32,000 nt of DNA, taken from contig PRDJ01000033.1 in NCBI GenBank assembly GCA_003345555.1, forward strand, positions 13,564 to 45,563, read 5' to 3'. Within the stretch, counting starts at the first letter, position 1. Each line of letters opens with the position of its first letter. A program made the position numbers and the translations under genes. Below the pieces are notes generated by a model. It saw nothing but the letters and a program-made list of their open reading frames with translations, made no database searches and was not told where the DNA came from. Shown here in pieces: positions 1-15,838 of this stretch. This stretch comes from Candidatus Thorarchaeota archaeon. GTDB taxonomy: Archaea; Asgardarchaeota; Thorarchaeia; Thorarchaeales; Thorarchaeaceae.

Positions 1-435
1 AAGAGCCAAGTCGTCGCGCTCCCAATCTGTCGGTTCGTAAAGCTTTCCATTATCGTACAGGGCCTTTCGTGATGTCACATAGCCCGGTGGTGTTATGCCC
101 TTGCGAAATGCCATGTTCTTGAGGCCAAAGATTATGTCAGTTATCTCGATTCCCTGAGGACAACGCTGCTGGCATTGATAACACGTAGTGCAGAGCCAGA
201 CCATGTCCGTGTCAAGGACTTCCCTGAAACCGAACAAGAGCATCCTCATCAACTCGTGGACTTGGATGTTCACTTTGTCAGAGACAGGGCACCCTGCGCT
301 GCACTTTGCGCACTGAAAACACGCGGTCAGGTCCTGCCCACCAATCAGCTTTGAGACCTCCTTCGTGAATTCAGCATCAAGTGCCTCGAACTTCTTGCCT
401 TCGAAGGACTTCAGCTGACCCCAGTTCTCTGCCAT
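1..435 (-). CDS. hdrC: Heterodisulfide reductase subunit C (third copy; 3' end runs off the window)
   Basis: Not in the ORF track; translated by hand from ATG at 435: MAENWGQLKSFEGKKFEALDAEFTKEV...CFQCAKCSAGCP...WLCTTCYQCQQRCPQGIEITDIIFGLKNMA. Two CxxCxxCxxxCP motifs; starts 4 nt after the hdrA stop. Confidence 0.9.
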   Translation of the reverse strand, partial: MAENWGQLKSFEGKKFEALDAEFTKEVSKLIGGQDLTACFQCAKCSAGCPVSDKVNIQVHELMRMLLFGFREVLDTDMVWLCTTCYQCQQRCPQGIEITDIIFGLKNMAFRKGITPPGYVTSRKALYDNGKLYEPTDWERDDLAL

Positions 436-439
436 TGAT

Positions 440-3400
440 TCATTTCCTCCTTGGTCTCAGAGGACTCGGTCCCAACTTGTCAGCGAGCTCAGAGAGCTTC
501 CGCACTGTGTCAGCCCAGATTGAGCCCTCGCTTGCACTAATGTGAGTGAACTGGAGCCGCTCGGTCTCAAGTCCCGCTTTCTCTAGTATCTTCTTCGCAA
601 TTGCGAATCTTCTCTCGAAGGTGATATTACCATCGACATAGTGACAGTCGCCTGTGTGACAACCGGATATCCAAACCATGTCTGCTCCGAGCCTGAATGC
701 TTCAAGGATGTGAGTGACACTAATGCGTCCGGTGCACATGACACGTATGTCTCGAACGTTGGTCGGCTGTTGAAACCTCGAGACACCCGCATTATCGGCC
801 CCGGCGTAGCTGCACCAGTTGCACACTATTGTTAGAATGCGTGATTGGTTTGCGGGCATGTCTTCGAGCGCCGCACGAATCTGAGAGAGTATCTGATCGT
901 CAGTGAAGTGCTTCATTGTGATAGCACCAGTGGGGCATCCGGCGGCACACTTTCCACAGCCCGCACAGAGCACGGGATTCGATACAGCATAGTCGTGACC
1001 GCCTTGGCCCGGAACAACCTCTATTGCATTGTAGGCACAATTGATTTCGCACGTGCCGCAGCCTACGCAGACCTCGGGATCCACAACAGAAACTATCGCC
1101 TCGGCCTTCCGAACACCCGTCACTAAAGGTACAAGTGCGCGAGCAGCCGCACCTCTTCCCTGTGCAATGGATTCATCGATTGACTTGGGTGCTGTTGCAG
1201 TCCCGGCCACATAGACACCATCTGTCTGGAAGTCCACCGGTCTCAGCTTCGGGTGTGCTTCCATGAAAAACCCAGACATGTTCAGCGGGACCTTGAATAG
1301 CTCTGAGATTTGCTTGTTGGTCTCCCGCGGAACCATCGCTGTTGCTAACACAACGTGATCAACATCAAGCCCTAGCTTCGCTCCGAGTATCTGGTCAGTG
1401 ACTTCTACCCTGAGGGGCCTGTTCTTCCCCTTCTTTACCTCTGGAGGCGAGTCCTTGTCGAATCTGATGAAAACAACACCTTTCTTCCGAGCTTCGCGGT
1501 ACCTGTCCTCTGCTGTGTAGGATACTCTCAGGTCCCTGTACAGATGGAATACCCGCGAATTGGGATACTTCTCGAGGAGCTCAAGAGTATGCTCAAGAGC
1601 AACAGTGCAGCAGATTCCCGAACACCAAGTTCGCGACCCTTCAAGAGACTCATCTTGGCGGGAACCAGCACAGTGGATTACAGCGAAAGTCTCTCCATCT
1701 TGGAATGCGTCGTCTTGTGCGAGCCGCTGATTCAGCTCAAGCTCTGTAGTGACATCGGGGAACTTCTGGAGGCCGTAGAGGCCCTTCTCCTCCAGCTGGA
1801 CTGCCCCCGTTGCAACGACGACAACCCCGACCTTCAGTTCCCGCTTCTGCTTCTTGCTTGTCATGACCGTTACTTCAAAATCACCAATCGATCCTTTGGC
1901 ATCCGTAACCTCCGAGTTTAGCATTAGCTCGATGTTAGAGTTGCCCTTGACCATTCGTTCGTGTTGTCCCACAATGTCTAGGGCAGGTGTGAAATCGAAG
2001 TTGACCGTGTGCAGCTGGCTCAATAGGCCGCCGACCTTGTCTTCCCTCTCTACAAGATATGTCTTGAACCCCTTGTCAGCTATCAGTTCTGCAGCTGACA
2101 TTCCGGCCACACCAGCTCCGATTACGAGAACCGCAGGCTCAACTTTCGTGGCTGCCTCTTCTTCAGGCTCGAGCAGTCTGGACTTGGCTACAGCCATTCG
2201 GACAAGATCCATGGCTTTCGCGGTGGCTTCATCTTTGGCACCTTGGTGTATCCATGAACAATGCTCACGTATGTTAGCCATTTCAAAAAGATACTTGTTG
2301 AGCCCAGCTTCTTCGGTTGTCGCTCTGAATAGGGGCTCGTGGGTTCTCGGTGTGCAGGAGGCTACAACAACACGATTGAGCTTGTGTTCCTTGATTGCAT
2401 CCTTGATGACGACTTGAGCATCTGATGAACAGGAATAAAGCAGATTCTGAGCATGAACGACATTAGGCAGCGAGCCTGCATAGCGAGTAACTTCTGCAAC
2501 GTCCACTGTTCCGGCAATATTGACACCACAAGAACAAACAAAGACGCCGATGCGGGGTTCTCCTGTTGCGAGTTCGGTGATGGTCTGTGTCGCCGCCTCA
2601 AGCTCAGGCGCCTTGGGGATGACTATATCAAGCGCTGCCAGTGCGGCAGCAGCGCTTCCCTGAGCGACTGAGTCAGGAATATCCTTAGGGCCATTCACTG
2701 TCCCACACATGTGAATTCCCGGGACACCGGTCTGGACACTTTCAACACGACCGGCCATGCCCTCCAAGTAGCCGTAGCTATCAATCTGAACACCGAGCTT
2801 CTGAAACAGATCTTGATTCTCGTTATGGACCATGGCCGGGCATAGGATGACTAAGTCGTAGCGATCCTGTAGAATCTCACGTCCTTTCATATCACTATGC
2901 CTGACAAGCAGGTCTCTGCTATCGCGGTCTTCGATGATTTCGCTGGGGAGACCCTTCACATAATTGATGCCATATTCCTTCTCGCCCCGCACGAGGAATT
3001 CCTCGAAGCCCTTACCAAAGGCACGCATGTCATTGTACAGAATGTCAATGTGGACCTCGGGCATATGCTCCTTCGTTATGATTGCCTCTTTCGTGGCATA
3101 TGTGCAACATATCCTTGAACAGTAAGGACAATGGTTCACATCACGTGAACCCACACACTGAACGAACGCAATTCGATGAGGTTCTCGACCATCGGAGGGA
3201 CGCATGATGACTCCCCCGGTGGGTCCGCTCGCAGAGACCATTCTCTCATACTCAAGACTTGTGACAACATTCGGGTACCGTCCGTAGCCCAGTTCCGGCA
3301 CGGTGGATGCGTCGAGAAGCCTGTAGCCAGTTGCAACAATGATTGAGCCAGCATTGATCTCAACCGTCTCATCCGGGCGTTCAAAATCGATTGCTTGGGC

Positions 3401-3904
3401 CTTGCAGCCATTCGCACAGGTCATGCACTGAATGCAGTTCTCGATGTCGATAGTCGCAATGTTGGGTACAGCCTGTGGGAATGGGATGTAGGCTGCTTTT
3501 CTCATCTTTAGGCCAAGGTCGTACTCGTTCGGAACCTCGATTGGACACACTCTCTGGCAATCGCCACAGCCAGTACACTTGTTCGAATCCACACGGCGTG
3601 TATGCTTCAGGACCTTCACTGTGAAGTCGCCCTGATTACCTGATACCTCTGTGACCTCAGAATAGGCCAGAATCGTGATATTGGGATTTCGTGAGCAATC
3701 GACCATCCATGGCCCCATGATGCACATCGAACAATCTAGGGTCGGGAACGTCTTGTCGAGCTGAGCCATGTGTCCACCGATGGATGGCTGCCTCTCGACC
3801 ATGTACACCCTAACGCCCATTCCGGCTAGGTCTAATGCAGCACGGATACCAGCGATTCCCGCGCCTATGATAACTACAGGTCTTGTTGAGGTCTCTGCCA
3901 TCAT
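440..3904 (-). CDS. hdrA: Large HdrA with two FAD/thioredoxin-reductase-like modules and a fused C-terminal MvhD
   Basis: IGAGIAG and IGAGVAG dinucleotide motifs; KTFPTLDCSMC; inserted ferredoxin (CTGCGDCQRVCP, CIQCMTCANGC); QCVGSRD..YCSRICC and HCAGSR..WCSGICC cluster motifs; HdrA N-terminal domain located mid-protein (GVFVCSCG, SCTPRTHE, NIREHCSW); C-terminal ferredoxin; MvhD motifs CNWCSYAGAD, VMCTGR, GCHTGDCHY, ISASEG. Confidence 0.95.
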   Translation of the reverse strand: MMAETSTRPVVIIGAGIAGIRAALDLAGMGVRVYMVERQPSIGGHMAQLDKTFPTLDCSMCIMGPWMVDCSRNPNITILAYSEVTEVSGNQGDFTVKVLKHTRRVDSNKCTGCGDCQRVCPIEVPNEYDLGLKMRKAAYIPFPQAVPNIATIDIENCIQCMTCANGCKAQAIDFERPDETVEINAGSIIVATGYRLLDASTVPELGYGRYPNVVTSLEYERMVSASGPTGGVIMRPSDGREPHRIAFVQCVGSRDVNHCPYCSRICCTYATKEAIITKEHMPEVHIDILYNDMRAFGKGFEEFLVRGEKEYGINYVKGLPSEIIEDRDSRDLLVRHSDMKGREILQDRYDLVILCPAMVHNENQDLFQKLGVQIDSYGYLEGMAGRVESVQTGVPGIHMCGTVNGPKDIPDSVAQGSAAAALAALDIVIPKAPELEAATQTITELATGEPRIGVFVCSCGVNIAGTVDVAEVTRYAGSLPNVVHAQNLLYSCSSDAQVVIKDAIKEHKLNRVVVASCTPRTHEPLFRATTEEAGLNKYLFEMANIREHCSWIHQGAKDEATAKAMDLVRMAVAKSRLLEPEEEAATKVEPAVLVIGAGVAGMSAAELIADKGFKTYLVEREDKVGGLLSQLHTVNFDFTPALDIVGQHERMVKGNSNIELMLNSEVTDAKGSIGDFEVTVMTSKKQKRELKVGVVVVATGAVQLEEKGLYGLQKFPDVTTELELNQRLAQDDAFQDGETFAVIHCAGSRQDESLEGSRTWCSGICCTVALEHTLELLEKYPNSRVFHLYRDLRVSYTAEDRYREARKKGVVFIRFDKDSPPEVKKGKNRPLRVEVTDQILGAKLGLDVDHVVLATAMVPRETNKQISELFKVPLNMSGFFMEAHPKLRPVDFQTDGVYVAGTATAPKSIDESIAQGRGAAARALVPLVTGVRKAEAIVSVVDPEVCVGCGTCEINCAYNAIEVVPGQGGHDYAVSNPVLCAGCGKCAAGCPTGAITMKHFTDDQILSQIRAALEDMPANQSRILTIVCNWCSYAGADNAGVSRFQQPTNVRDIRVMCTGRISVTHILEAFRLGADMVWISGCHTGDCHYVDGNITFERRFAIAKKILEKAGLETERLQFTHISASEGSIWADTVRKLSELADKLGPSPLRPRRK

Positions 3905-3977
3905 TTGTCCCTTTAGGGGTGATATGTAGCGGCCTCATGGTTGGACGATAAAACGTTTGTTCTAGCGGAGATTCTTT

Positions 3978-4877
3978 TCACGTTGTGCCAAGACTCAGAA
4001 TCATGTCTTTCAGATTCTTCACAATCCTGAGTGCATCATCCCAGTCACGCTGCCAGAGGTTCCTGCCGAAAATCAAACCTGCAGCTCCTTCTTGTAAGCA
4101 CACCCTTGCCTTGTGGAGGATTTCGTCATCATCAATCTTACCCCCGCCTGAGAAGAGCACGAGAGTCTTGCCAGCTGAATGTATCACCTTCCTCACGCGT
4201 TCATCATAGCTCAGGTTCAATGAGTCGTAGGGTTTCGGTTGTAGAGACCTTGTTTTTGGATCATCATTGGGAACGTTGATCTTGACTAGGTCTGCTCCAA
4301 GCTCACTTGCCACGCGAGCTGCGTAGTCGACTGCATATAGAGAATCGCGTCCGCCCTTCGAATCTACCGCTGCTCCTCTTGGGTATGCCCACATGACGAT
4401 TGGCATACCATAACGGTCAGCATCAGCTTTGACTTTCCTGAATTGGTTGAAATCTTCAACCTGCCTTGGACTACCCACAAAAAGAGTGTACCCCACAGCA
4501 TCTGCACCGATTCTGACCGCGTCTTCAACCGAGGCCGTCATGGGTGAGACAGGGTAACCCTCGCTAGGAATGCTCGTCTTACCATTGAGCTTGAGGATAA
4601 TCGGGACCTTGCCGGCATACTTCGATGCATACTTCTCGGCCAGACCCAAGTGAAGCGCAACTCCTGACAGACCGCCCTCAAGAGCGAGCCTGAACTGAAA
4701 CGTGGGGTCCTCAGAGGGGGGATTCGGGAGGAAGTCTATCGGACCGTGCTCGAGCCCTTGGTCAATTGGCATTATGAGCATATGCCCGTTGCCCGGACCG
4801 TGCTCATACATGAGTCGATGTAGCCTGATTCTCTTCCCGAGGCTGAGGTAGTCCATGTCGTCCAGCCAGTTCTTCAA
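3978..4877 (-). CDS. fba: Class I (DhnA-type) fructose-bisphosphate aldolase family protein
   Basis: PIDQGLEHGP, GADAVGYTLFVGS, WAYPRG (catalytic Tyr), GADLVK (Schiff-base Lys), GLIFGRN; TTG start with GAGGT upstream. Confidence 0.85.
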   Translation of the reverse strand: MKNWLDDMDYLSLGKRIRLHRLMYEHGPGNGHMLIMPIDQGLEHGPIDFLPNPPSEDPTFQFRLALEGGLSGVALHLGLAEKYASKYAGKVPIILKLNGKTSIPSEGYPVSPMTASVEDAVRIGADAVGYTLFVGSPRQVEDFNQFRKVKADADRYGMPIVMWAYPRGAAVDSKGGRDSLYAVDYAARVASELGADLVKINVPNDDPKTRSLQPKPYDSLNLSYDERVRKVIHSAGKTLVLFSGGGKIDDDEILHKARVCLQEGAAGLIFGRNLWQRDWDDALRIVKNLKDMILSLGTT

Positions 4878-4925
4878 AGCACGTAGACCTCGGTTTTACC
4901 AATGAAGCGGTCCTTCATAAACATT

Positions 4926-5870
4926 CTAGGCCGTTGCCTTTGCCTTGGCCCTGAGGTTGAGCCGCTCCCAATTAGGCTCGGTCTTCCTCTGCGAATACTG
5001 TAGATGGTTGGCGAGCCCGAATTCATCCGGCTCATGGCCAAAAGCGAGTGCTAGCAGCTCAGATACGTGCATGATATCGAACTTGTACTCGACTCCGAAG
5101 AGTTTCTGGATCTCTACTTGGCCCGTGTCAAGCTGAAGCAAACAGAACGGGCACGGGGTCACAATAACATCGGCACCACCTGCAGCCGCAATGCTGTCGA
5201 ATTTCTGCTTCGTGAAGTCGAGAGAAGTCTTGAGATCTGCAGTCCTTACCGCGCCACCGGCGCCACAGCAAATCAGCTCATCCTTGTAGTGGACGTACTT
5301 GGCACCGCTAGTTTCGCAGATTTCCCTGAATATGTGAGGCCGCTCGCTATCGTCTTTCTTCTTTACTAGTTTCGGTCTCATCCAGTGACATCCAGGATGA
5401 AGGGCCATTCTGACTCCATTCAGTGGGCGCGTGACATGCTCCTTAACCTTCTGAGTACCAACAACGTCGTGGAGCACATCGAGGTAGTGTGTCACCTCGA
5501 TTGTGCCTTTGAACTCACGCCCGATATCAGCTAGGTTGCGGTTCACGGCAGCCCTAAGCTCCTCGTCTTCCTTCAACTCATGGTTTGAGTCCCACAAGCT
5601 GGCGAAGCAACCGTTGCACCCAGTTGTAATGGGGTGGCCACCTTGCTCTGCAATAGTCAGATTTCGAGCAGCAATGGTAGCCCACGTGACTCTGTCAAAT
5701 GAACCGAACACGCCCGGAGCAGGACAACAGCTCGCCCCAACCATGTCAAGCAAGTCTATACCTAAGTCGTTGAAGACGAGTTTCGTTGCTTTCTCGATGC
5801 TCGGATATCGATGCGGAATAATGCAGCCCAGAAAATGATAGTATGCAGGTCGCTTCGACAAGCCGTTCAC
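4926..5870 (-). CDS. hdrB: Heterodisulfide reductase subunit B (methanogen type)
   Basis: Two complete CCG domains: FLGC, GASCCPAPGVFGSFD, GCNGC, PGCH, CCGAGG, PCPFC. GTGA overlap with the upstream hdrC. Confidence 0.95.
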   Translation of the reverse strand: MNGLSKRPAYYHFLGCIIPHRYPSIEKATKLVFNDLGIDLLDMVGASCCPAPGVFGSFDRVTWATIAARNLTIAEQGGHPITTGCNGCFASLWDSNHELKEDEELRAAVNRNLADIGREFKGTIEVTHYLDVLHDVVGTQKVKEHVTRPLNGVRMALHPGCHWMRPKLVKKKDDSERPHIFREICETSGAKYVHYKDELICCGAGGAVRTADLKTSLDFTKQKFDSIAAAGGADVIVTPCPFCLLQLDTGQVEIQKLFGVEYKFDIMHVSELLALAFGHEPDEFGLANHLQYSQRKTEPNWERLNLRAKAKATA

Positions 5871-6436
5871 TTCTCCTTCTTTTCCGCAGCGGGTGGTTCC
5901 TCAGTATAACCAATCAGTTTGTCAAATCCGCTCTTCTTGGCTATCTTGCGAATCTCCTGCGCCACCTTCGGACTCGACGACCCATTTGGAGGCAATGGTT
6001 CGAGACCGGATTTCTTCCTCAGTTCGGACCACGTATCCTTGTCAAGAGGCACAGCATGTCCGGACTCCATCACTTTCTTTGCTGTGTCCTGATGTGACTT
6101 GAGCATGTGTCCCTCTGCGACGGCGACGTTTCTGATTGCCTTGATGACATCGGTTGGCTTCACATCTTGCGGACAACGATCCGTGCACATGTAGCAGGTG
6201 GTACAGTACCAAAGCTCAGGAGCGGTGATGACCTCGTTCTTCAGGCCAAGCAGAGCCTTCCTTATGATTCCTCTCACAAGATAGTTAGTGCGGGCTCCCG
6301 CGGGGCAAGATCCAGAGCAAGTGCCACATTGGTAGCAGCTTTGGATGTTTGGTCCGCCGGCCTTCTTGATCATTTCGATGAATTCAAGGTCCACCTCGTC
6401 AACGTCAACCGGGGGTCTTTCTTCAACAATTGTCAA
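5867..6436 (-). CDS. hdrC: Heterodisulfide reductase subunit C
   Basis: CYQCGTCSGSCP, LWYCTTCYMCTDRCP, GHAVP. Start moved to TTG at 6436 because AGGTG lies just upstream (track gives 6466). Confidence 0.93.
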   Translation of the reverse strand: MTIVEERPPVDVDEVDLEFIEMIKKAGGPNIQSCYQCGTCSGSCPAGARTNYLVRGIIRKALLGLKNEVITAPELWYCTTCYMCTDRCPQDVKPTDVIKAIRNVAVAEGHMLKSHQDTAKKVMESGHAVPLDKDTWSELRKKSGLEPLPPNGSSSPKVAQEIRKIAKKSGFDKLIGYTEEPPAAEKKEK

Positions 6437-6569
6437 GTTCGGGCACCTGAGCGTTCGGACCAGCAAATGGTTCGGCCTTTTATCCGTTGCTTCATGGCTA
6501 CTGTTATTATGCGTTCGTTATGTGGCACAACGGAAAGGTTGAATCGAACGAGTGGAATAGAGGATCGGA

Positions 6570-7649
6570 ATGTTCTGCCCAAACCATTGTGACGAGAAGC
6601 GGCTTGTTTCATGCTCTGTAGGGTACTGCCCAGAGTGCCTTGCCGCTGATAGCCGATTGCTGGAAAGAGTGTTGAACGTGCACAGAGCCAGCAGAAACCA
6701 CGCTGGCCTGATTCAGGGTGTCCCAGCCACCGGTCCACATGTATGTCCGGAATGCGCAAATCATTGCAGGCTAAGTGATGGCCAGACGGGATTCTGTAAT
6801 GGCAGAAAGGCGACGGCGTCGGGCATAATCGAGAGATACCCGGGCAGGGCGGTCGTCTACTGGTACTTCGATCCATTGCCTACAAATTGCGTGGGGGACT
6901 GGGCCTGCTCGCTCACTCGTCCGGAGAAGAAGTCATGCCTCCCTTACCTGAAGAACCTGGCCGTGTTCTACGGGTCTTGCAGCTCTGACTGTCTCTTCTG
7001 CCAAAACATAGGCTATCGTGACATGATGGCAAGAGGACGACCTCTGATGACTCCCGAAGAACTTGCATCAGTGGCAGACGACAGGACAGCGTGCGTCTGC
7101 TATTTCGGGGGAGATCCATCGTGCAATGCGAAGCATTCAGTCGAAACGGCCAAGCTGGTTAGACAGGAACGGGACCTGAAGGTCTGTTATGAGACCAACG
7201 GCCTCATCTCCAGCAAGTGGCTACAGCGGATTGCCGATGTGGTATGGGAAAGCAGAGGACCAATCAAGTTCGACCTTAAGGCGTTCACCCCGGAACTCTA
7301 TACGGCATTAACGGGAGTGTCTAATGCATCTGTTCTCAGGAATTTCAGAACGCTGGCCCAACGAGGAAAGAACCGTGAAGAGGAATTCCTCATTGCCAGC
7401 ATATTGCTTGTGCCAGGGTATGTCGGAGTGTCAGAGGTCAGAAAGCTGGCAGACTTCATCGCTGCCTGTGACGCAACCATTCCGACTGCGCTCCTAGGTT
7501 TCTTTCCACATCACATGATGAGTGACTTGCCTTGCACTAGCATAGCACACGCGAATGCCGCGGTTAAGGCAGCAAGGGATGCGGGGCTAATGAACGTTAG
7601 AGTGGGAAATACTGGACTACTCTCTTCAGTAGAGTACACGGTCAGCTAG
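6570..7649 (+). CDS. Radical SAM protein (PflA/AmmeMemoRadiSam-related) with extra N-terminal Cys-rich segments
   Basis: CSSDCLFCQN (CxxxCxxC), YFGGDPS, ETNG, DLKAF, LLVPGY; N-terminal CPNHC, CPEC and CPECANHC..GFC motifs. Confidence 0.85.
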   Translation: MFCPNHCDEKRLVSCSVGYCPECLAADSRLLERVLNVHRASRNHAGLIQGVPATGPHVCPECANHCRLSDGQTGFCNGRKATASGIIERYPGRAVVYWYFDPLPTNCVGDWACSLTRPEKKSCLPYLKNLAVFYGSCSSDCLFCQNIGYRDMMARGRPLMTPEELASVADDRTACVCYFGGDPSCNAKHSVETAKLVRQERDLKVCYETNGLISSKWLQRIADVVWESRGPIKFDLKAFTPELYTALTGVSNASVLRNFRTLAQRGKNREEEFLIASILLVPGYVGVSEVRKLADFIAACDATIPTALLGFFPHHMMSDLPCTSIAHANAAVKAARDAGLMNVRVGNTGLLSSVEYTVS

Positions 7650-7875
7650 AGGCAGCTAGGGACATCAGATGATTGCTGCCCTCACGAGCTCATGTGAACA
7701 AGCGTCCATCCTCGGGCTCTCGTGGCCAATGCCCCGAGAAAGGGGAAATGTATAAAGGACCGCAGGACAAGGCTCTAAGATTGCAAGTGTGGCTCGTGTA
7801 CAAGCCTCGGGTGAGGTATCAAGAGTACACGAAGACAAACTGGCGTCCTTTCCCACCACAGGAGGTAACGAAGCT

Positions 7876-8328
7876 ATGGTCGCGAGTCCGATTACGACAT
7901 ATCTCTACGTGATAAGCCTGATTCTGGTCTACGGTTCCCTGGGAATTGCCTTTGCGGTCGGTGCTTCCATGACAATATTCGTCATCGACGGCGTTCTCTG
8001 CATACTGTCGCTTGCTCTGCTTCAGGGGCTCCGTTGCGCTATCACTGGCAAGACCGTAACCGTGGCACCTGGCCCCATGGCCGTTACACGATATCAGCAG
8101 CAATCCGATGGGGTTCATGCTGTAACTGAAAGTAGGTGGAGTGCTGGAGGGACCTACGGTGCACGATACTACGGTCTCCTGTTTGGGTGTCTGGGCCTGC
8201 TCTTCGGGCTCATGATTGGATTTGGTGGGGAGATGTACGAGCAAGATACCTTTCCAGCCGTGACTCTCTTAGCCAGTACCATCTTCGCTATCATCGGGGC
8301 GATAGCGTACAAACCCACTAGCAGCTGA
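7876..8328 (+). CDS. Small integral membrane protein (about 4 TM), unknown function
   Basis: GGAGGT 9 nt before ATG at 7876; four hydrophobic stretches; TATA-like TGTATAAA near 7750. Confidence 0.7.
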   Translation: MVASPITTYLYVISLILVYGSLGIAFAVGASMTIFVIDGVLCILSLALLQGLRCAITGKTVTVAPGPMAVTRYQQQSDGVHAVTESRWSAGGTYGARYYGLLFGCLGLLFGLMIGFGGEMYEQDTFPAVTLLASTIFAIIGAIAYKPTSS

Positions 8329-8344
8329 ATTGCACCGTATAGTA

Positions 8345-8673
8345 GTCACTCTTGACCTTGAGGCATTCGCTCAAGGAGTCTGCATCCATCCCGGCTGTCT
8401 ACTAGATTGCGAGTCGCGACGAACATACCGCTTGTGCCGGGATATGTTTGAGTGTCAGAGGTTAGAAGACGGACAGATTTCATTGCCAGCTGCGACCCCA
8501 CTATTCCGACAGCGCTCCTAGGCTTCATCCCGCATCATATGACGAGTGGCCTGCCTTGCACTGCCAGAGCACATACAGATGCAACTGTCAAGGCGACGCA
8601 AAAGGCAGGGCTAACGAACATAAGAGATAGAAACAAGGGTTTTCCGTCCAGCAGGGAGTACAACCTACAGTGA
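8345..8673 (+). pseudogene. Decayed 3' fragment of a paralog of the radical SAM gene
   Basis: 8431-8673 is colinear with 7407-7649 (about 68% nt identity by hand count) with GGA->TGA at 8449-8451; DLEAF (8354) matches DLKAF (7272) but is offset by a 58-nt frameshifting deletion. Confidence 0.85.
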
Positions 8674-8758
8674 TGACAAAGAGTGCACAATGTACAAGTA
8701 CTCTGAATGCGTTTATGCCAAGCTCTCAGCCACTGTCAGTATCATGAGTGAGTGAAAG

Positions 8759-9766
8759 ATGGAAGACCTGATTTCCAAATGTGGGATGTGCTGCAGTCGG
8801 TGCCCGGCCTACAGAGCAAACATAAGAACAAAAGCCGACAAGATTCGAACAAGTGATGGATGGTACAAGTACCTGGGCTTTCGCTTTCCTTCACGGCTAA
8901 TCATCTGCGATGGGTGCCAGATGCCGGATGATCAGAGCCCCTTGCGCATAAGACGAGGATGCACGGTACGAAACTGTGCAATATCAAATGGTGTCGAGAC
9001 CTGCGCGCATTGTTCGGAGTATCCGTGTGAAGCAGTAAAGACACTGAGCTACGTTGATAGGCAATGGGCCGAAACTAGATTGGGCGATAGAATCAAAGAG
9101 GAGGACTATCTAACCTTCATAGAACCATACGAAGGTATCAAGCATCTGGACAAGATTCGAGCCAGTCTTGGCCCCGAAGATATCTTGAAGGCAGAAATTT
9201 CGTTGGCCGAATCCAAAATATCGAACTTTCCTGAGCACCTGCCGCTTCCAAAGGAGGACCTAATCGCTTTACAAGCCCTCCACAGTATCTTGGCTTCAGT
9301 GAAATCCATTGGTGGCGGTACCTATGCTATGCAGGTGACCTTGGAGAACAGGAGGAGGTACCTCCTGAGGCTATTGTGGGTCTTTGGATGCTATGGTGAA
9401 ATGGAAGATAAGAACGGTTCGTACCTTGTGGTTACTAGTGAGGCCTACTCTACTAAGATGCGCCAAGCTCCGGCTTTCTCACTCTTCTCAAGGATGTTAG
9501 GTCACTTTGATGTCCTGAAAGAGTTCGGAATACGTTGCCAACATGTGCAATTGACAGAAGAGAAGTATGGGAAGAAAGGATGGCTAACCCCGACAGGAGC
9601 GTTGAGGAGAAATGGGTGGGCTATCAAGATGAGCTTCGAGGAGCGTGTGGGAGGGGCGTCAGCGTTGAAAGCTCTCAGAACCTACGCGACGAGACTGAGC
9701 GAGAAGCAGGGAGAAAAAGGATACGCCCTCTTCTCACAGGTGGACATGAGACCATTGGAAGAGTAG
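8759..9766 (+). CDS. DUF3795 Cys-rich domain protein with a long unassigned C-terminal region
   Basis: CGMCCSRC, CDGC, CTVRNC, CAHCSEYPC pattern in the first ~90 aa. Confidence 0.75.
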   Translation: MEDLISKCGMCCSRCPAYRANIRTKADKIRTSDGWYKYLGFRFPSRLIICDGCQMPDDQSPLRIRRGCTVRNCAISNGVETCAHCSEYPCEAVKTLSYVDRQWAETRLGDRIKEEDYLTFIEPYEGIKHLDKIRASLGPEDILKAEISLAESKISNFPEHLPLPKEDLIALQALHSILASVKSIGGGTYAMQVTLENRRRYLLRLLWVFGCYGEMEDKNGSYLVVTSEAYSTKMRQAPAFSLFSRMLGHFDVLKEFGIRCQHVQLTEEKYGKKGWLTPTGALRRNGWAIKMSFEERVGGASALKALRTYATRLSEKQGEKGYALFSQVDMRPLEE

Positions 9767-9843
9767 AGAATCACATGCGACCATGATTGACTGTCCATCG
9801 CACTGCACCAACCAAGCTCTACTTCGCCTCCCTTATGTGAATG

Positions 9844-9862
9844 CTTATATCGTGTCACACGA
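9844..9862 (+). promoter_or_regulatory. TATA-like box with adjacent palindrome upstream of the second hdrCB
   Basis: CTTATAT at 9844-9850 runs directly into TCGTGT-C-ACACGA (9850-9862), about 50 nt before the ATG at 9899. Confidence 0.4.
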
Positions 9863-9898
9863 CGAAGCGGCTACTGCTCCAAGTTCAGAGGTCCTACA

Positions 9899-10450
9899 AT
9901 GGGAGAGATCATTCGGGAAACCATTTCAGCTGGCGATATGGACCCAACATTCATAGAGAAGATCGAAAAGGCTGGTGCAGATAGGATACGAACTTGCCTA
10001 TCCTGTGGGACCTGCTCAAGTGTTTGCCCCTCTGGTCGTCGTACAGCTTTCAGAACGCGTGAGCTTATCCGTAAAGCCTTGCTCGGCCTCAGAGAAGACG
10101 TTCTGAGTTCTCCAGACCTTTGGTTATGTGCCACATGTCTTACTTGCTTGGAGCGCTGTCCGAGACAAATCAAGATCACAGATGCAATCATAATCATGAG
10201 AAACATGGCTGTCAAGGAAGGATTCATGCTTCCTCAGCATCGAAAGTCCGCTCAGAAGCTGCTTCAGACAGGACATGCAGTACCATTGGATGATGCAAAC
10301 CGGGACATGCGAAGGGAACTGGGTATCCCAGAGATACCTCCCACAGTGCACTCAAGCGAGGAAGCACTCGCACAGGTCAAGGAGATAATGAGACTCACGG
10401 GGTTCGATACCCTTGTAGAAGGAGAAGGAACAGGGGCCAAGCAGGAATGA
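9899..10450 (+). CDS. hdrC: Heterodisulfide reductase subunit C
   Basis: CLSCGTCSSVCP, LWLCATCLTCLERCP, GHAVP; ATGA overlap with hdrB. Confidence 0.93.
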   Translation: MGEIIRETISAGDMDPTFIEKIEKAGADRIRTCLSCGTCSSVCPSGRRTAFRTRELIRKALLGLREDVLSSPDLWLCATCLTCLERCPRQIKITDAIIIMRNMAVKEGFMLPQHRKSAQKLLQTGHAVPLDDANRDMRRELGIPEIPPTVHSSEEALAQVKEIMRLTGFDTLVEGEGTGAKQE

Positions 10451-11340
10451 CAGACCCTCAAACTTACTCATTGTTCCTCGGATGTGTGATGCCAAATCGC
10501 TATCCTAATGTCGAGAAAAGCATCAGAGTTGTACTTCCAGCACTCGGTATAGAGCTGGAGGAGCTGGAGGGAGCAAGTTGTTGCCCTGCACCGGGCGTCA
10601 TAAGATCATTTAGCGAGCGGACATGGCTCGCGCTCGCATCTCGCAACCTTGCATTGGCGGAAAGAGCGGGTCACGATATCATCACGGGATGCAATGGCTG
10701 CTATGGAACCTTCAAAGAAGCGCTCAATATAGTGCACGAGAAACCCGACCGGCTCAAGGATGTCCAGCAGATCCTCAAGAGCGTTGGACTGAAGTACGAG
10801 GCAGGTGTCGACGCAAAACACCTCATCGAGGTTATCTACAGCATTGGGATTGACCCTCTGCGAAAGAAGATTACGCGCCCCCTCACAGGCTTGAAGGTCG
10901 GCGTACACTATGGATGTCATCTTCTGAGGCCAAGCAAGCTGAGACCTTGGCACCAAATTCAGAAGCAGACATTCCTCGATGAGCTCGTCGAAGTGACGGG
11001 AGCCGAGAGCGTCAAGTACAAGGACAAGTTCCTCTGCTGTGGCGCCGGAGGTGGAGTACGTGGCTCCAATGTCCCTGTCAGCATAGACATTGCCCGAGAG
11101 AAACTTGATAATATGATGGAAGCAGGAGCTGATTGCATAGTCGATGTTTGTTCGTTCTGCCATCTTCAGTTCGAGGTTTGTCAGGCTGAACTCAACAAGG
11201 AACTAGGGGAGAACAAGTATCACCTACCCGTGATATATTACACCCAGCTCTTGGGATTGTCGATGGGGTTTGAACCTCAGGATCTCGGGCTTCACAAACA
11301 TGTTGTCAGCACTCAGGCGCTTCTGGATCGCTTCCTTTGA
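10447..11340 (+). CDS. hdrB: Heterodisulfide reductase subunit B
   Basis: FLGC, GASCCPAPG, GCNGC, YGCH, CCGAGG, VCSFC. Confidence 0.93.
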   Translation: MTDPQTYSLFLGCVMPNRYPNVEKSIRVVLPALGIELEELEGASCCPAPGVIRSFSERTWLALASRNLALAERAGHDIITGCNGCYGTFKEALNIVHEKPDRLKDVQQILKSVGLKYEAGVDAKHLIEVIYSIGIDPLRKKITRPLTGLKVGVHYGCHLLRPSKLRPWHQIQKQTFLDELVEVTGAESVKYKDKFLCCGAGGGVRGSNVPVSIDIAREKLDNMMEAGADCIVDVCSFCHLQFEVCQAELNKELGENKYHLPVIYYTQLLGLSMGFEPQDLGLHKHVVSTQALLDRFL

Positions 11341-11371: not shown

Positions 11372-12265
11372 CTAGTACCATCTCTTGGCCGCGTAGTACA
11401 CTACAAGAGACATGACAGCGCTTGATATTATCGCTGCGGAGATGAACAGTCCAATAATGAAGCCCTGGTCAGTTGTCGTCGTTGTTCTAGTGACCAGGAC
11501 ATCGCCTGCGGTGAAGGGTGCATCAGACGTGTCGCGATTCATGTAAATGCCGTCAGAGACCCTAATCTCAACAACGTAGGTGGAGATATTGAGGAAACCC
11601 TGGGTGTACCATGTAAACCACGTCTTGTTCAATCCTTTGGAAAGAAGTTGAAACGTCAATCCCGAGTCCGATGAGAGTCGGACCTCATAGGTGAGCTCCT
11701 CTTCGGAATTGTTGTCCCAACCGAACCAGGTTATGTTGTGGGCACCGGTCCAGTGCTCGCCGCCATTCGGGGAAATCACTCTTACGTGAGGAACGAGGAA
11801 GTTGCCTATGAATACATTAGTGACCGTCTCTTCAACAAAAGTCCCGTTGTATAGCCATGCCGACGCTATTATGACGCAGCTGGCATTGTTGCCGAGTTGT
11901 CTAGTGTCAACTGATGCTGTAGTCGAACTACTCTCGTTGGATATTGCCTTCGGGATTGCTGTGGCATTGACCACGATTCTTGTCTTCACGACCAATCCTA
12001 GAGGAGTCCAAGTCGCATTCAAGATTATGTGATCGCCTGAAATCGTATCACCAGAGTGAACCGTCATCGGGGTATGGTCCCATCTTGAATAGTATGTGAG
12101 TGAGAGATTAACGTCCCATGTGGAAAGCGCATGTCCAGTGGGCAGGAGGGGGGTGGCAACTGAGCACGCGTGCAATTGTGAAAGCGAAATCATCAGTAGC
12201 AGCATCACTATGTGACTGTAGCGAACATGAACGCTTATTGAGCGACTTTGAGATGGGTGCTTCAT
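11372..12265 (-). CDS. Membrane-anchored cell-surface glycoprotein with an Ig/FN3-like domain
   Basis: Hydrophobic N-terminal signal-like stretch; VISPNGGEHW..NITW..YEVRLSSD Ig-like pattern; 10 N-X-S/T sequons; Thr linker; C-terminal TM ending in AKRWY. Start moved to ATG at 12265 to avoid overlap with the upstream gene. Confidence 0.7.
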   Translation of the reverse strand: MKHPSQSRSISVHVRYSHIVMLLLMISLSQLHACSVATPLLPTGHALSTWDVNLSLTYYSRWDHTPMTVHSGDTISGDHIILNATWTPLGLVVKTRIVVNATAIPKAISNESSSTTASVDTRQLGNNASCVIIASAWLYNGTFVEETVTNVFIGNFLVPHVRVISPNGGEHWTGAHNITWFGWDNNSEEELTYEVRLSSDSGLTFQLLSKGLNKTWFTWYTQGFLNISTYVVEIRVSDGIYMNRDTSDAPFTAGDVLVTRTTTTTDQGFIIGLFISAAIISSAVMSLVVYYAAKRWY

Positions 12266-12324
12266 GAGACCCGACCTGGCCGCACGAAGTCCTCTTTTGC
12301 TCCAGTTAGTTCTATTGTTAGAAC

Positions 12325-12789
12325 TCAATCCTCTTGCTCCGGAAATGGTTGTTCCCTCCATATCCTAAAAGATTCGTACCAAAGGACAACGCAGACTGAC
12401 ACCAGAAGACCAACCAGAACGGCTGAGTACCATTCAATGTAGGAAAGCAGCATGGTGGTCAGTGCAGCTGTGACTGATGTGTAGAAGGTGGCATAGAAAA
12501 GAAACCGAGGAACCATCAGTCGACCTTTACCAATGAACATTCTCAGCACGCCAACCCTGACGTCGCGCCTCACTGTGTACTGCCCATGGACATCCTTGTC
12601 AACAAGACCCAGCTGCCTCAGATGTTCTAGGTGATGCATTGAGAGAGAAGGACTGGAAAGCGCAGCCCCTCTCTGAATCTCTCTGGCGGTCATTGGCACG
12701 GGATGCCGAAGCATATACCAGTATACACGAAGAGTCCTGCCCTTTAGCGACTTGACCAGCTCTTCCTCGTCAGGCTCCTCGTCGGGCAT
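12325..12789 (-). CDS. Winged-helix DNA-binding protein with two C-terminal TM helices
   Basis: LKGRTLRVYWYM..AREIQRGAALSSPSLSMHHLEHLRQLGLVDK wHTH pattern followed by two hydrophobic helices. Confidence 0.8.
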   Translation of the reverse strand: MPDEEPDEEELVKSLKGRTLRVYWYMLRHPVPMTAREIQRGAALSSPSLSMHHLEHLRQLGLVDKDVHGQYTVRRDVRVGVLRMFIGKGRLMVPRFLFYATFYTSVTAALTTMLLSYIEWYSAVLVGLLVSVCVVLWYESFRIWREQPFPEQED

Positions 12790-12942: not shown

Positions 12943-13299
12943 ATGGCTTCCGTGAGAAAACCCATTACACCAAAACCTGTCAGAATGCGAGACAAGGTTC
13001 TCGTTATGCTGGAGGAGAGGTGCAAAGGTGATCAGTGCCAGCTGTGCGTCAGTTTCTGCCCTAAGAACGTCCTCTGTCTGACTGACAAGTACAACCGAAA
13101 GGGGTACCATCCAGTCACAGCTTGCGACATCGATGCATGCACGAATTGCCAGTTCTGTGAACTAATCTGTCCGGACATGGCGATATATCTCGCTGACAGG
13201 GATGAAGCTGAGAAGGTTTTCAAGAGCCACGGGCTGGAGGAGGGCACCAAGATTCCAGAACTCGAGAATGATGCTGCAAAGGAAGGGGGGACCGACTGA
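12943..13299 (+). CDS. korD: 2-oxoacid:ferredoxin oxidoreductase delta (ferredoxin) subunit
   Basis: CKGDQCQLCVSFCP and CTNCQFCELICPDMAI; abuts the alpha subunit. Confidence 0.88.
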   Translation: MASVRKPITPKPVRMRDKVLVMLEERCKGDQCQLCVSFCPKNVLCLTDKYNRKGYHPVTACDIDACTNCQFCELICPDMAIYLADRDEAEKVFKSHGLEEGTKIPELENDAAKEGGTD

Positions 13300-14436
13300 T
13301 TGCCTCGGCGTGAGATTTTTACTATGGGAGACATTGCCTGCGCGGAAGGCGCGATTAGTGCAGGATGCCGATACTTTGGTGGCTATCCCATAACGCCCGC
13401 AACGGAAATCGCTGAGTGGATGGCTGTCAGAATGCCGGAGGTCGGCGGCGCGTTTGTTCAGTACGAAGATGAGATTGCCTCGATAACAAGCGCGCTGGGT
13501 GCTTCGTGGGCCGGGACAAAGGCGATGACTGCTACATCCGGCCCCGGTGCAAGTCTCATGATGGAATCAGTTGGTCTTGCAGTCATGACGGAAACCCCAG
13601 TTGTTATTGTCAACATAATGAGAGGCGGTCCGAGCACAGGTCAGCCCACGCGCGGACAGCAGGGTGATGTATTCCAAGCCAAGTGGGGCAGTCACGGTGA
13701 CTATCAGATAATCGGACTGACACCGGCTTCAGTCCAAGAGATGTTCGATTTGACGGTTAGGGCTTTCAATCTCTCTGAGAGGTATAGGGTGCCTGTTTTT
13801 GTATTGGCGGACGAAGTCGTTGGGCATATGAGAGAAAAGCTTGTGATTCCTGACGAAAAAGACCTGAAACTCGTAGACAGGAAGATGCCAACTGTTGACC
13901 CCTCGGACTATCTTCCATTCAAGCCAGGCGATGATCTTGTACCGCCTATGGCATTGCTTGGCACTAAGTACCAGTTCTATGCTACTGGTTTGACGCATGA
14001 TGAAAGAGGATATCCTACCGACAGCGACGAAGTCCAAATCGAGCTGATAACACGGCTCAGTGAAAAAGTGCTCCGTCATGTGTATGATATAATCGACGTG
14101 GAGAAGTACATGCTTGATGATGCGGATATTGCAATAGTGGCGTATGGCACGCCTTCAAGAAGTGCGAGAAAGGCGATCAAAGATGCACGCGCCGAGGGCA
14201 TCAATGTGGGCATGCTGAGACTGAAGAGCGTATGGCCATTTCCGGAGAAAATCGTGTCTGAACTCGGTTCACAGGTCAGGCATATCATAGTCCCGGAGCA
14301 GAACATGGGGCAGATCTACTACATGGTCAGGGCATTTGCAGCGCCAACGCCCATTCACCTGATGACCAAGCCCGCTGGCACACCACAACTACCCGACGAG
14401 ATACTTCAGAAGATCAAGGAGGTACACTCCCTATGA
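13300..14436 (+). CDS. korA: 2-oxoacid:ferredoxin oxidoreductase alpha subunit (KOR/VOR type; substrate not determined)
   Basis: GYPITPATEI, EDEIASI, TATSGPG, MRGGPSTGQPT; TTG start. Confidence 0.92.
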   Translation: MPRREIFTMGDIACAEGAISAGCRYFGGYPITPATEIAEWMAVRMPEVGGAFVQYEDEIASITSALGASWAGTKAMTATSGPGASLMMESVGLAVMTETPVVIVNIMRGGPSTGQPTRGQQGDVFQAKWGSHGDYQIIGLTPASVQEMFDLTVRAFNLSERYRVPVFVLADEVVGHMREKLVIPDEKDLKLVDRKMPTVDPSDYLPFKPGDDLVPPMALLGTKYQFYATGLTHDERGYPTDSDEVQIELITRLSEKVLRHVYDIIDVEKYMLDDADIAIVAYGTPSRSARKAIKDARAEGINVGMLRLKSVWPFPEKIVSELGSQVRHIIVPEQNMGQIYYMVRAFAAPTPIHLMTKPAGTPQLPDEILQKIKEVHSL

Positions 14437-15275
14437 CGACGGCGCCAGCCACACTCGTGCATCCGATGTCCAAATACATCAGAGAAGATAGGCTGCCTTG
14501 GATCTATTGCCCCGGGTGTTCCATCGGGATAGCGACTGGCATGATAGTGCGGGCCATTGACAACATCGGCCTTGACTTCTCGAAGGTTGTATTTGTGTCG
14601 GGGATTGGTTGCAGCGGTCGCACGTCCGGCTACTTCAAGACAGGAACTTTCCACACGACTCACGGAAGAGCTATTCCATTCGCAACTGGTGTAAAAATCG
14701 CGAATCCTGACTTGGAAGTCATAGTGGTTGCGGGCGATGGCGATTTGGCCGCCATCGGGGGAAATCATCTCATACACGCTTGCAGGCGTAACATAGACAT
14801 GACCGTGGTCTGCATAAACAACTGGAACTACGGCATGACAGGCGGGCAGTTTGGGCCCACTACAGAACATGAGAAGCTGACTCAAACAAGCCCTCCGCCA
14901 ATAGGAAACATGGAGCATCCTTTCAATCTCATCAAGCTCGCTGCGTCGTCAGGTGCGACCTTTGTTGCACGCTGGACTGCCGTCCAGGTCCGCCGAGGTA
15001 TAACGTCGATAGAGAAAGGAATCAAGAAGAAAGGCTTCTCATTCATCGAGATTGTCGGTGCCTGCCCCACCGCGTATGGAAGAATGAACAAGCTGGGCGA
15101 AGGCGTTGACATGCACAAGCACCTTCTCGAGGTTACAGACATTCAGAATGGGTTGCCACCACACGAAGCGGAGATTGAATACGATAAGAGGATAGTATGC
15201 GGGGAGTTTGTTGACATCGAAAAGCCTGAGTATACGGACGTTCTCAAGCAGATGCATGCAAAGGTCAGGAAGTGA
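14433..15275 (+). CDS. korB: 2-oxoacid:ferredoxin oxidoreductase beta subunit
   Basis: YCPGC, SGIGCSGR, HTTHGRAIPFATGVK, GDGD..N (TPP binding), YGMTGGQ, GACPT. Confidence 0.92.
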   Translation: MTTAPATLVHPMSKYIREDRLPWIYCPGCSIGIATGMIVRAIDNIGLDFSKVVFVSGIGCSGRTSGYFKTGTFHTTHGRAIPFATGVKIANPDLEVIVVAGDGDLAAIGGNHLIHACRRNIDMTVVCINNWNYGMTGGQFGPTTEHEKLTQTSPPPIGNMEHPFNLIKLAASSGATFVARWTAVQVRRGITSIEKGIKKKGFSFIEIVGACPTAYGRMNKLGEGVDMHKHLLEVTDIQNGLPPHEAEIEYDKRIVCGEFVDIEKPEYTDVLKQMHAKVRK

Positions 15276-15280
15276 TTTGC

Positions 15281-15838
15281 ATGAGCCGTTACGAAATAAG
15301 AATCGGGGGCTTCGGCGGTCAGGGTATCGTGACGATGGCCGTGGTGATAGGAGAGTCTTCTTCGCTCTTTGACAAGAAGTATGTTGTACAGACTCAGTCC
15401 TACGGTCCTGAAGCCCGAGGTGGGGCGAGCAAAAGCGAGATAGTCATCAGCGACGAGGAGATCGACTATCCCAAGGTAATAGCTCCTGATGTCTTCATTG
15501 CGATGAGTAGGGCCGCGTATCTAGAATACGTTCATGGTCTGAAAGAGAACGGCGTACTGATAATCGACAGCGATTTAGTGAATGTGGAAAGCGAGTTGCC
15601 TCAAGGCGTCAGAGTATACAGGGTACCGGCCACGCGTATTGCAGATCAAGAGGTCAGAAGCAAACAGACGACGAATGTTGTAATGATGGGAGCATTCGCA
15701 GCCATAACAAAAGCTATCTCTATCGACGGTCTAAGACACCAGATGGAGGAGCGCTGGCCCAAGTTTGTTAAGATCAACCACCTAGCCCTTGAACTGGGAA
15801 TCAAGGCAGGTGAGAAGGCTCTCGCAGGTGAGTCGTAA
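15281..15838 (+). CDS. korC: 2-oxoacid:ferredoxin oxidoreductase gamma subunit
   Basis: GFGGQGIV, QSYGPEARGGASKSE, NVVMMGA; ATG at 15281 preferred over GTG at 15272. Confidence 0.92.
   Translation: MSRYEIRIGGFGGQGIVTMAVVIGESSSLFDKKYVVQTQSYGPEARGGASKSEIVISDEEIDYPKVIAPDVFIAMSRAAYLEYVHGLKENGVLIIDSDLVNVESELPQGVRVYRVPATRIADQEVRSKQTTNVVMMGAFAAITKAISIDGLRHQMEERWPKFVKINHLALELGIKAGEKALAGES

Follow-up and report, generated by a model that had tools for sequence, protein, structure and literature searches.

The window analyzed here is a 32,000-nucleotide stretch of contig PRDJ01000033.1 (G000:C33:13564-45563) from the metagenome-assembled genome of a sediment Thorarchaeota archaeon (MAG; 2.28 Mb, 82 contigs, estimated completeness 93.5%), and the system in question is the cluster of heterodisulfide reductase (Hdr) genes at its beginning. 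We consider it fairly probable that this stretch is the core of an Hdr island conserved in a family of Thorarchaeota, and that the island encodes parts of three separate flavin-based, electron-bifurcating or -confurcating Hdr-type complexes, as opposed to swappable HdrCB pairs (termed heads below) on one HdrA. The first complex, hdrAf-hdrC3-hdrB3, would comprise a single-chain, one-sided HdrA pseudo-dimer with MvhD, with a bifurcation-type flavin site in module 1 only, and would feed one Asgard-type HdrC3B3 head. HdrC2-HdrB2, and probably HdrC1-HdrB1 as well, would be methanogen-type heads for the canonical HdrA encoded on contig C57 and the MvhDGA hydrogenase encoded on C24, a presumably ancestral partnership that is still one operon in other Asgard families; the canonical HdrA could take both heads, its homodimer having two head sites. 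Alternatively, one methanogen-type head could belong to the island's second fused HdrA, which has neither MvhD nor an HdrCB pair of its own, or possibly neither head does. By analogy with the proposal for cultured Asgard archaea, we infer that the complexes couple reduced ferredoxin, derived from 2-oxoacid oxidation by the adjacent 2-oxoacid:ferredoxin oxidoreductase (OFOR), and a thiol/disulfide couple to H2. The pairing of heads with HdrAs is based throughout on synteny and phylogeny.

The Hdr genes of the island, called with Pfam and NCBIfam profiles (cut-offs of 160 bits for TIGR03290 and 345 bits, equivalog, for TIGR03288), are as follows:

Upstream of the window on C33, convergent on hdrB3: second fused double HdrA, 1045 amino acids, without MvhD
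C33:12605-13483, minus strand: hdrB3, just outside the window; two CCG domains
1..435, minus strand: 5' part of hdrC3, which continues beyond the window edge (full gene C33:13480-13998, minus strand, 172 amino acids); Pfam Fer4_8, two CxxCxxCxxxCP motifs
440..3904, minus strand: hdrAf, an HdrA-HdrA-MvhD fusion of 1154 amino acids (Pfam, NCBIfam; E = 1.9e-218 against HdrA of 5ODC)
4926..5870, minus strand: hdrB1; two CCG domains, 377 bits on TIGR03288, 332 bits to the methanogen HdrB 8rvv_B
5867..6466, minus strand: hdrC1, overlapping hdrB1 by 4 bases; 190 bits on TIGR03290
9899..10450, plus strand: hdrC2; 201 bits on TIGR03290, 198 bits to the methanogen HdrC 8rvu_c
10447..11340, plus strand: hdrB2; 380 bits on TIGR03288, 338 bits to 5ODC_B

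Every gene named by an earlier, sequence-only reading of the window (hdrC-hdrB-aldolase-hdrA/mvhD-hdrC on the minus strand and a separate hdrC-hdrB on the plus strand) is in its place, and that account of the gene content is correct but understated. The third hdrB that it proposed to look for upstream of position 1 is there: hdrC3 starts 4 bases past the hdrAf stop codon and overlaps hdrB3 by 4 bases, the junction having been read directly. Profile scans of the window likewise agree with it that there is no mcr, mvhA/G or fdh gene, and no electron-input module (hydrogenase or formate dehydrogenase) was found in the island, the upstream part of the contig included.

Anatomy of the fused HdrA

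The first line of evidence comes from an alignment of both fused proteins with split HdrA pairs and canonical HdrA, onto which the numbering of 5ODC was transferred from a printed alignment. The protein encoded by hdrAf is a type II (fused) HdrA, with two thioredoxin-reductase modules of differing domain make-up in one polypeptide, and together with its MvhD part it aligns end to end with chains A and D of 5ODC. Module 1 (residues 1-448) contains the DCSxC motif (Cys197), the inserted ferredoxin domain with both of its motifs, E356, K409 and a four-cysteine cluster (C386/C399/C403/C404). Module 2 contains the N-terminal domain, the C-terminal ferredoxin domain and MvhD (residues 1020-1150, with an FlpD domain at 1023-1145); it has kept the four-cysteine cluster, lacks Cys197 and the inserted ferredoxin domain, and has N at the position of E356 and E at that of K409. 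The FAD-binding glycines are present in both modules. As judged from these residues, hdrAf is a one-sided pseudo-dimer with exactly one copy of each element of the electron path described for the HdrA homodimer (PMC9012536, PMC13518236), spread over the two modules, and with one predicted flavin site of the bifurcation type.

This layout is not peculiar to the window. Fused HdrA-MvhD proteins of the hdrAf layout occur in 49 of the 121 Asgard genomes sampled, and a single (D/E)CxxC motif and K409, both in module 1, characterize all 40 fused Asgard HdrAs compared. In all family orthologs, the K409 position of module 2 is occupied by E in hdrAf and by A or T in the second fused HdrA. Selenocysteine was considered for the second fused HdrA of the relatives and rejected: the TGA codons are natural stops, and the aligned open reading frames are free of in-frame stops.

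Two classes of HdrB

The second line of evidence is the division of the HdrB paralogs into two classes. The ten CCG cysteines (CX31-39CCX35-36CXXC, two noncubane [4Fe-4S] clusters) align in HdrB1, HdrB2 and HdrB3, and the earlier statement that the first two retain all of them together with the GASCCPAPG motif is borne out. HdrB1 and HdrB2 have cluster loops of the 5ODC type (CCPAPG and CCGAGGG/A; in HdrB1, CCPAPG and CCGAGGA) and exceed the equivalog cut-off of TIGR03288, whereas HdrB3 scores 266 bits, below it; HdrB3 and the HdrBs encoded on C36 and C50 have a plain CCG motif and, where CCGAGGG would stand, lack two residues behind the second CCG. Two proton-path residues have been proposed for HdrB of M. 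thermolithotrophicus (PMC13518236). Of these, H154 is present in all three proteins, and E87 is present in HdrB2 and replaced by D in HdrB1 and HdrB3. HdrB1 and HdrB2 score 238 bits against each other (38% identity), and each is nearer to the solved methanogen HdrB; the corresponding score for HdrB3 is 235 bits. The HdrC paralogs all have both CxxCxxCxxxCP motifs and are 32-44% identical, HdrC3 being 32-34% identical to HdrC1 and HdrC2; together with the HdrB tree, this supports the earlier view that the paralogs are old.

The tree was built from 57 HdrBs of the fetched loci in a quick IQ-TREE run; its only support values come from the Shimodaira-Hasegawa-like approximate likelihood ratio test (SH-aLRT), it was rooted at the midpoint, and several of its branches are long. 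It includes no methanogen sequences, the likeness to methanogen HdrB coming from searches of the PDB. HdrB1 and HdrB2 fall inside a 27-row clade (SH-aLRT 99), and HdrB3 groups with the HdrB of C50 and with HdrBs linked to fused HdrAs (SH-aLRT 95), all of which share the two-residue deletion. Twelve members of the 27-row clade come from other families; eight of these have a canonical HdrA no more than 7 kb away, usually accompanied by mvhDGA, and a fused HdrA adjoins none of the 12. HdrB heads can be separated here into two classes: methanogen-type heads, which go with canonical HdrA-Mvh, and Asgard-type heads, which go with fused or split HdrA. Two heads of the former class are retained uniquely by Thorarchaeota.

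Conservation of the island

The third line of evidence is synteny: the cluster is a genuine unit, whose order and orientation are kept within the family. In all six genera compared, kor genes are followed by a gene pair for a helix-turn-helix (HTH) protein and a 329-residue protein, hdrB2-hdrC2 (divergent), usually a radical S-adenosylmethionine (SAM) enzyme gene, hdrC1-hdrB1, hdrAf and hdrC3-hdrB3, and in all six the far end is formed by a DUF2096 gene and the second fused HdrA, convergent. Of 17 sampled family genomes, 16 have a true ortholog of hdrAf, all 17 have one of hdrB1 and 15 have one of hdrB2; orthologs at 67-88% identity are confined to the Thorarchaeaceae, the family of this genome. 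The kor genes are a conserved neighbor of hdrC2B2, and the HTH/329-residue pair keeps its place throughout the family. In most genera the radical SAM gene separates hdrC1 from hdrC2; it is missing from the closest relative, G003. In that genome, the hdrB2 ortholog (L032:6611-7503) aligns in three pieces in different frames and is either a pseudogene or the product of assembly indel errors.

Two genes within the cluster do not share this conservation. A DUF3795 gene was seen between hdrC1 and hdrC2 in none of the relatives' loci examined and is therefore no part of the conserved island. The aldolase gene is single-copy, with orthologs 66-91% identical in 21 of 24 family genomes; hdr genes lie near it in this genus only (3 of 19 fetched family loci), and the encoded enzyme is therefore probably a lodger and not an Hdr component. 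As an Hdr-linked enzyme it was rejected, since in the loci fetched from outside this genus its gene is away from hdr genes. The junction between hdrB1 and hdrAf takes unrelated insertions, namely the aldolase here and 2-4 kb of regulators and other genes in G013 and G014, and the hdrAf/hdrC3 junction has unrelated insertions in three genomes.

Probable pairing of heads with HdrAs

Ten loci with a fused HdrA-MvhD were fetched from Asgard families other than this one, and in nine of them the fusion gene is followed by exactly one hdrC-hdrB, with none upstream. Because of this, and because HdrB3 groups with the HdrBs of such loci, hdrAf most plausibly pairs with HdrC3B3. HdrB2, and probably HdrB1, would belong with the canonical HdrA since their clade adjoins canonical HdrA and mvhDGA elsewhere and since both of these are orphaned in this genome: the one canonical HdrA (653 amino acids, C57) and the complete mvhDGA operon on C24 have no hdr neighbor in the several kilobases read on each side. 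The sequence-only reading had HdrBC modules docking interchangeably on the two halves of one asymmetric HdrA. The one-sidedness of hdrAf, with its single Cys197, inserted ferredoxin domain and flavin site with K409/E356, argues against this, as do the single hdrCB of the outside loci and the occurrence of the HdrB1/HdrB2 clade beside canonical HdrA. The HdrB phylogeny proposed as a check did set the methanogen-type pair apart from HdrB3, and it lent interchangeability no support; each HdrBC pair largely groups with a different hdrA, which speaks against one shared HdrA.

Several observations weigh against separate complexes. In every family genome examined, hdrC1B1 directly precedes hdrAf on the same strand, with a gap of just 250-470 bases in three genera, and this placement would also fit co-expression and physical partnership. 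As far as its sequence goes, hdrAf could conceivably have a second docking site, since the four-cysteine cluster towards HdrC is present in module 1 and in module 2 alike. For the second fused HdrA, no partner could be demonstrated. The host is a MAG of 82 contigs, so the "orphan" hdrA and mvhDGA could have neighbors past the contig ends. Finally, G022 and G014 do not have equal numbers of heads and HdrAs, the difference being one in each.

One alternative is that the asymmetric single-chain HdrA-MvhD carries two HdrCB heads, together or alternately, with C1B1 and C3B3 on separate modules and two disulfides reduced. We regard this as unlikely, although it has points in its favor: the same-strand order hdrC1-hdrB1-hdrAf-hdrC3-hdrB3 in all family loci examined, the FAD-binding glycines and four-cysteine cluster in both modules, and the occurrence in other Asgard families of cognate CB pairs upstream as well as downstream of fused HdrAs (where mvhD is separate, some of these families have the pair upstream and not downstream). 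Against it stand the single flavin site with K409/E356 and the single copy of each accessory domain, the one CB pair of nearly all related fused loci, the tie of the HdrB1 clade to canonical HdrA and the tolerance of the hdrB1-hdrAf junction to unrelated insertions. In our opinion, two heads on one HdrA is the less economical model. Its more specific form, in which hdrC1B1-hdrAf(MvhD)-hdrC3B3 make one complex of an asymmetric HdrA with one methanogen-type and one Asgard-type head, is a shade more doubtful still. If true, such a complex could exchange electrons between two thiol/disulfide couples or choose its high-potential acceptor, and it would be an Hdr architecture not described before.

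Host metabolism and the substrate of the heads

Searches for McrA, ComA, ComD (alpha subunit of sulfopyruvate decarboxylase) and DsrC found none of them in this genome at its 93.5% completeness; the control genomes responded as expected. Thus the search for mcr and coenzyme M (CoM) synthesis genes that the sequence-only reading had called for returned none of the three markers; synthesis of coenzyme B (CoB), which has no specific marker, was not searched. The organism is not a methanogen or an anaerobic methanotrophic archaeon (ANME). Its neighboring genes are heterotrophic in character, as had been claimed: they encode the OFOR, a 2-hydroxyacyl-CoA-dehydratase-like trio and a CoA ligase. Since CoM-synthesis genes were not found, the disulfide reduced is probably not CoM-S-S-CoB.

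An alternative consistent with these results is that the HdrB-type heads reduce no small-molecule heterodisulfide at all but act, like other CCG-domain proteins, on another class of substrate (a protein-bound disulfide or persulfide, or a carbon compound connected to the acyl-CoA and 2-oxoacid enzymes nearby), and that the island serves fermentative ferredoxin/H2 redox balancing. We judge this improbable to about the same degree as the two-headed HdrA. Besides the missing CoM markers and mcrA, the linkage of kor to hdrCB in two families, the lower-scoring NCBIfam hits of the HdrBs to CCG proteins of the TfrB (thiol:fumarate reductase), SdhE and LdhH types, and the differing loops of B3-type heads at both cluster sites speak for it. 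It is opposed by the scores of HdrB1 and HdrB2, which are above the CoB-CoM HdrB equivalog cut-off and reach ~330 bits against the solved methanogen HdrB with identical cluster-loop motifs, by H154 in all three HdrBs and E87 in HdrB2, and by the failure to find DsrC.

That the host is a cryptic or incompletely assembled methane or alkane metabolizer with ordinary CoM-S-S-CoB reductase paralogs is very improbable: its HdrB1, HdrB2 and HdrC sequences are very methanogen-like and 6.5% of the genome was not captured, but mcrA, ComA and ComD were not found here, the closest HdrB2 homologs come nearly all from Thorarchaeota MAGs (with few exceptions, their public name is "Candidatus Thorarchaeota archaeon"), many family genomes that are 95-99% complete carry the same island, and Thorarchaeota are treated as non-methanogens in the literature (PMC7015854, PMC11237513).

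Comparison with known systems

The closest characterized system is MvhADG-HdrABC of hydrogenotrophic methanogens (5ODC, 8RVU, 9SFI). Likeness to it includes the ~330-bit scores of HdrB1 and HdrB2, their ten cysteines, CCPAPG and CCGAGGG loops and H154, the two ferredoxin motifs of HdrC1 and HdrC2, and the end-to-end alignment of the HdrA modules and MvhD. The system described here differs in its host, in which mcrA, ComA and ComD were not detected, in its single-chain asymmetric HdrA with fused MvhD, in the loops of HdrB3 at both cluster sites and in the lack of a hydrogenase in the locus. In the MvhADG-HdrABC complex, MvhA/G of a group 3c [NiFe] hydrogenase dock through MvhD; in this genome, mvhDGA operons lie on C36, with its own hdr genes, and on C24 (the orphan), and not in the island.

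The type II or tandem HdrA of ANME and methanogens (PMC9012536, PMC12054007) also has two thioredoxin-reductase modules in one chain, with the N-terminal domain, Cys197 and ferredoxin domains complementary between the modules, which implies a built-in heterodimer. Unlike it, hdrAf has MvhD at the C-terminus; it has Cys197 in module 1 and the N-terminal domain in module 2, the reverse of the order in ANME HdrA3/4 (PMC9012536); and its module 2 lacks K409, whereas both key residues are kept in 75% of type II sequences (PMC12054007). Nor does the cluster contain an FdhB or molybdopterin partner, and the host metabolizes no methane.

Much of this has precedents. Heterodimer-like tandem or fused HdrAs and HdrAs with an NfnB/GltD insertion are known from ANME, methanogens and Bathyarchaeota (PMC9012536, PMC12054007). 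Duplicated HdrA fusions with a C-terminal MvhD and many hdrA copies were counted in Thor- and Lokiarchaeota (PMC11237513); for the cultured Asgard strain MK-D1, PMC7015854 proposes a confurcating MvhADG-HdrABC that re-oxidizes ferredoxin from 2-oxoacid oxidation; and PMC11291895 speaks of an "unidentified heterodisulfide" in Asgard archaea. Multiple and fused HdrAs in Thor- and Lokiarchaeota, heterodimer-like HdrA and the question of the Asgard heterodisulfide are, thus, already published, and the locus overturns no current view, most of its elements being in the literature. These three Asgard reports concern the same lineage and the same protein types; in the passages of them consulted, we found no locus-level description, no two HdrB classes with their HdrA partners, no island of three CB pairs and two fused HdrAs with DUF2096 and OFOR, and no two methanogen-type heads specific to this family.

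No known organisms are more closely related to eukaryotes than the Asgard archaea, whose energy metabolism is believed to depend on electron confurcation by Hdr-Mvh with a heterodisulfide. The locus supplies a conserved set (three CB pairs, two fused HdrAs, DUF2096 and OFOR) that could be expressed for finding the substrates.

Other Hdr loci in this genome and in Asgard archaea

The genome contains five hdrC-hdrB pairs (three in the island, one on C36 and one on C50) and about ten longer HdrD-like CCG proteins. Split HdrA pairs are encoded on C36 (448 and 583 amino acids, with mvhD-mvhG-mvhA) and on C50 (420 and 725 amino acids, the second half fused to MvhD). Genome-wide, five CB pairs face five HdrA dimer-equivalents, plus one GltD-inserted HdrA. 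Stoichiometry was set aside as proof of 1:1 pairing: the counts, exact in three genomes (G000, G012 and G007) and off by one in two, are suggestive only.

The GltD-inserted protein is a 916-residue type III HdrA (C36:14615-17365; L002:11616-14366, minus strand) whose ferredoxin domain is interrupted by a GltD/NfnB-like NAD(P)H module, a further likeness to the HdrA set of ANME and methanogens; type III HdrA has been reported only from ANME-1 and Bathyarchaeota (PMC12054007). It heads the C36 operon, followed by a 115-residue gene, hdrC, hdrB, the split HdrA pair and mvhD-mvhG-mvhA. Frames of ~930 residues in G007, G013, G014 and G022 match hdrAf in two separated pieces, which would fit a large insertion. 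On C50 (C50:42480-46037; L003:11481-15038), the hdrC-hdrB-hdrA-hdrA/MvhD operon runs on into genes for a 760-residue protein that ends in a ferredoxin domain and for an acyl-CoA dehydrogenase, which hints at a link of this Hdr to acyl-CoA oxidation.

In family f12 (L070:2262-11138, L071:39-8912), hdrC-hdrB-korD-korA...-canonical hdrA-mvhD-mvhG-mvhA lie on one strand. OFOR is here embedded in an Hdr-Mvh operon, which would tie ferredoxin production directly to the confurcating hydrogenase; because this operon joins hdrCB, kor, hdrA and mvhDGA, the position of kor beside hdrC2B2 in the window finds an explanation. None of 30 fused HdrAs fetched from other families matches the second fused HdrA better than hdrAf, so that loci outside the family gave no pointer to its partner. 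Other families have larger Hdr islands of their own, L077 (G089:C46) and L082 (G088:C3), and multi-Hdr clustering is therefore common in the phylum. One of the two islands consists of three tandem fused hdrA genes, each with its own mvhD; the other has fused, split and canonical hdrA and three hdrB-like genes, of which two adjoin an hdrC.

Remaining genes of the window and its upstream flank

The other features are listed below; the rest of the window encodes a 2-hydroxyacyl-CoA-dehydratase-like pair and its activase, an acyl-CoA ligase and housekeeping proteins.

C33:12018-12590, plus strand: DUF2096 gene with both Pfam halves, ~1 kb before the window, after the second fused HdrA and on the same strand
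3978..4877, minus strand: DeoC/LacD-family class I aldolase (Pfam and NCBIfam)
6570..7649, plus strand: radical SAM enzyme, distantly like activase and AmmeMemoRadiSam types
8759..9766, plus strand: DUF3795 protein (Pfam)
11372..12789, minus strand: 154-residue HTH protein, then a 329-residue protein of no assigned family; convergent on hdrB2
12943..15838, plus strand: korDABC-type OFOR, four subunits

The TATA element earlier ascribed to hdrC2B2 corresponds to a TATA-like GCTTATATCG ~50 bases before hdrC2, which is weak support for a separate promoter. Promoter-defined transcription units were dropped, the TATA-like AT-rich boxes before hdrC2, hdrAf and the aldolase gene being too weak.

Two small genes lie on the plus strand between the radical SAM gene and hdrC2. 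A fragment at 8422-8670 (plus strand) matches the C-terminal 83 residues of the radical SAM protein (6570-7649) at 64% identity and is probably what is left of a second copy.

The literature searched yielded no mention of DUF2096, and among 14 control genomes only M. jannaschii gave a match. The gene is single-copy in this genome, and in each family locus examined it comes after the fused HdrA that lacks MvhD and shares its strand; a distant copy stands directly after hdrC-hdrB in G031 (L086:9220-9738). The DUF2096 protein is a candidate Hdr accessory protein.

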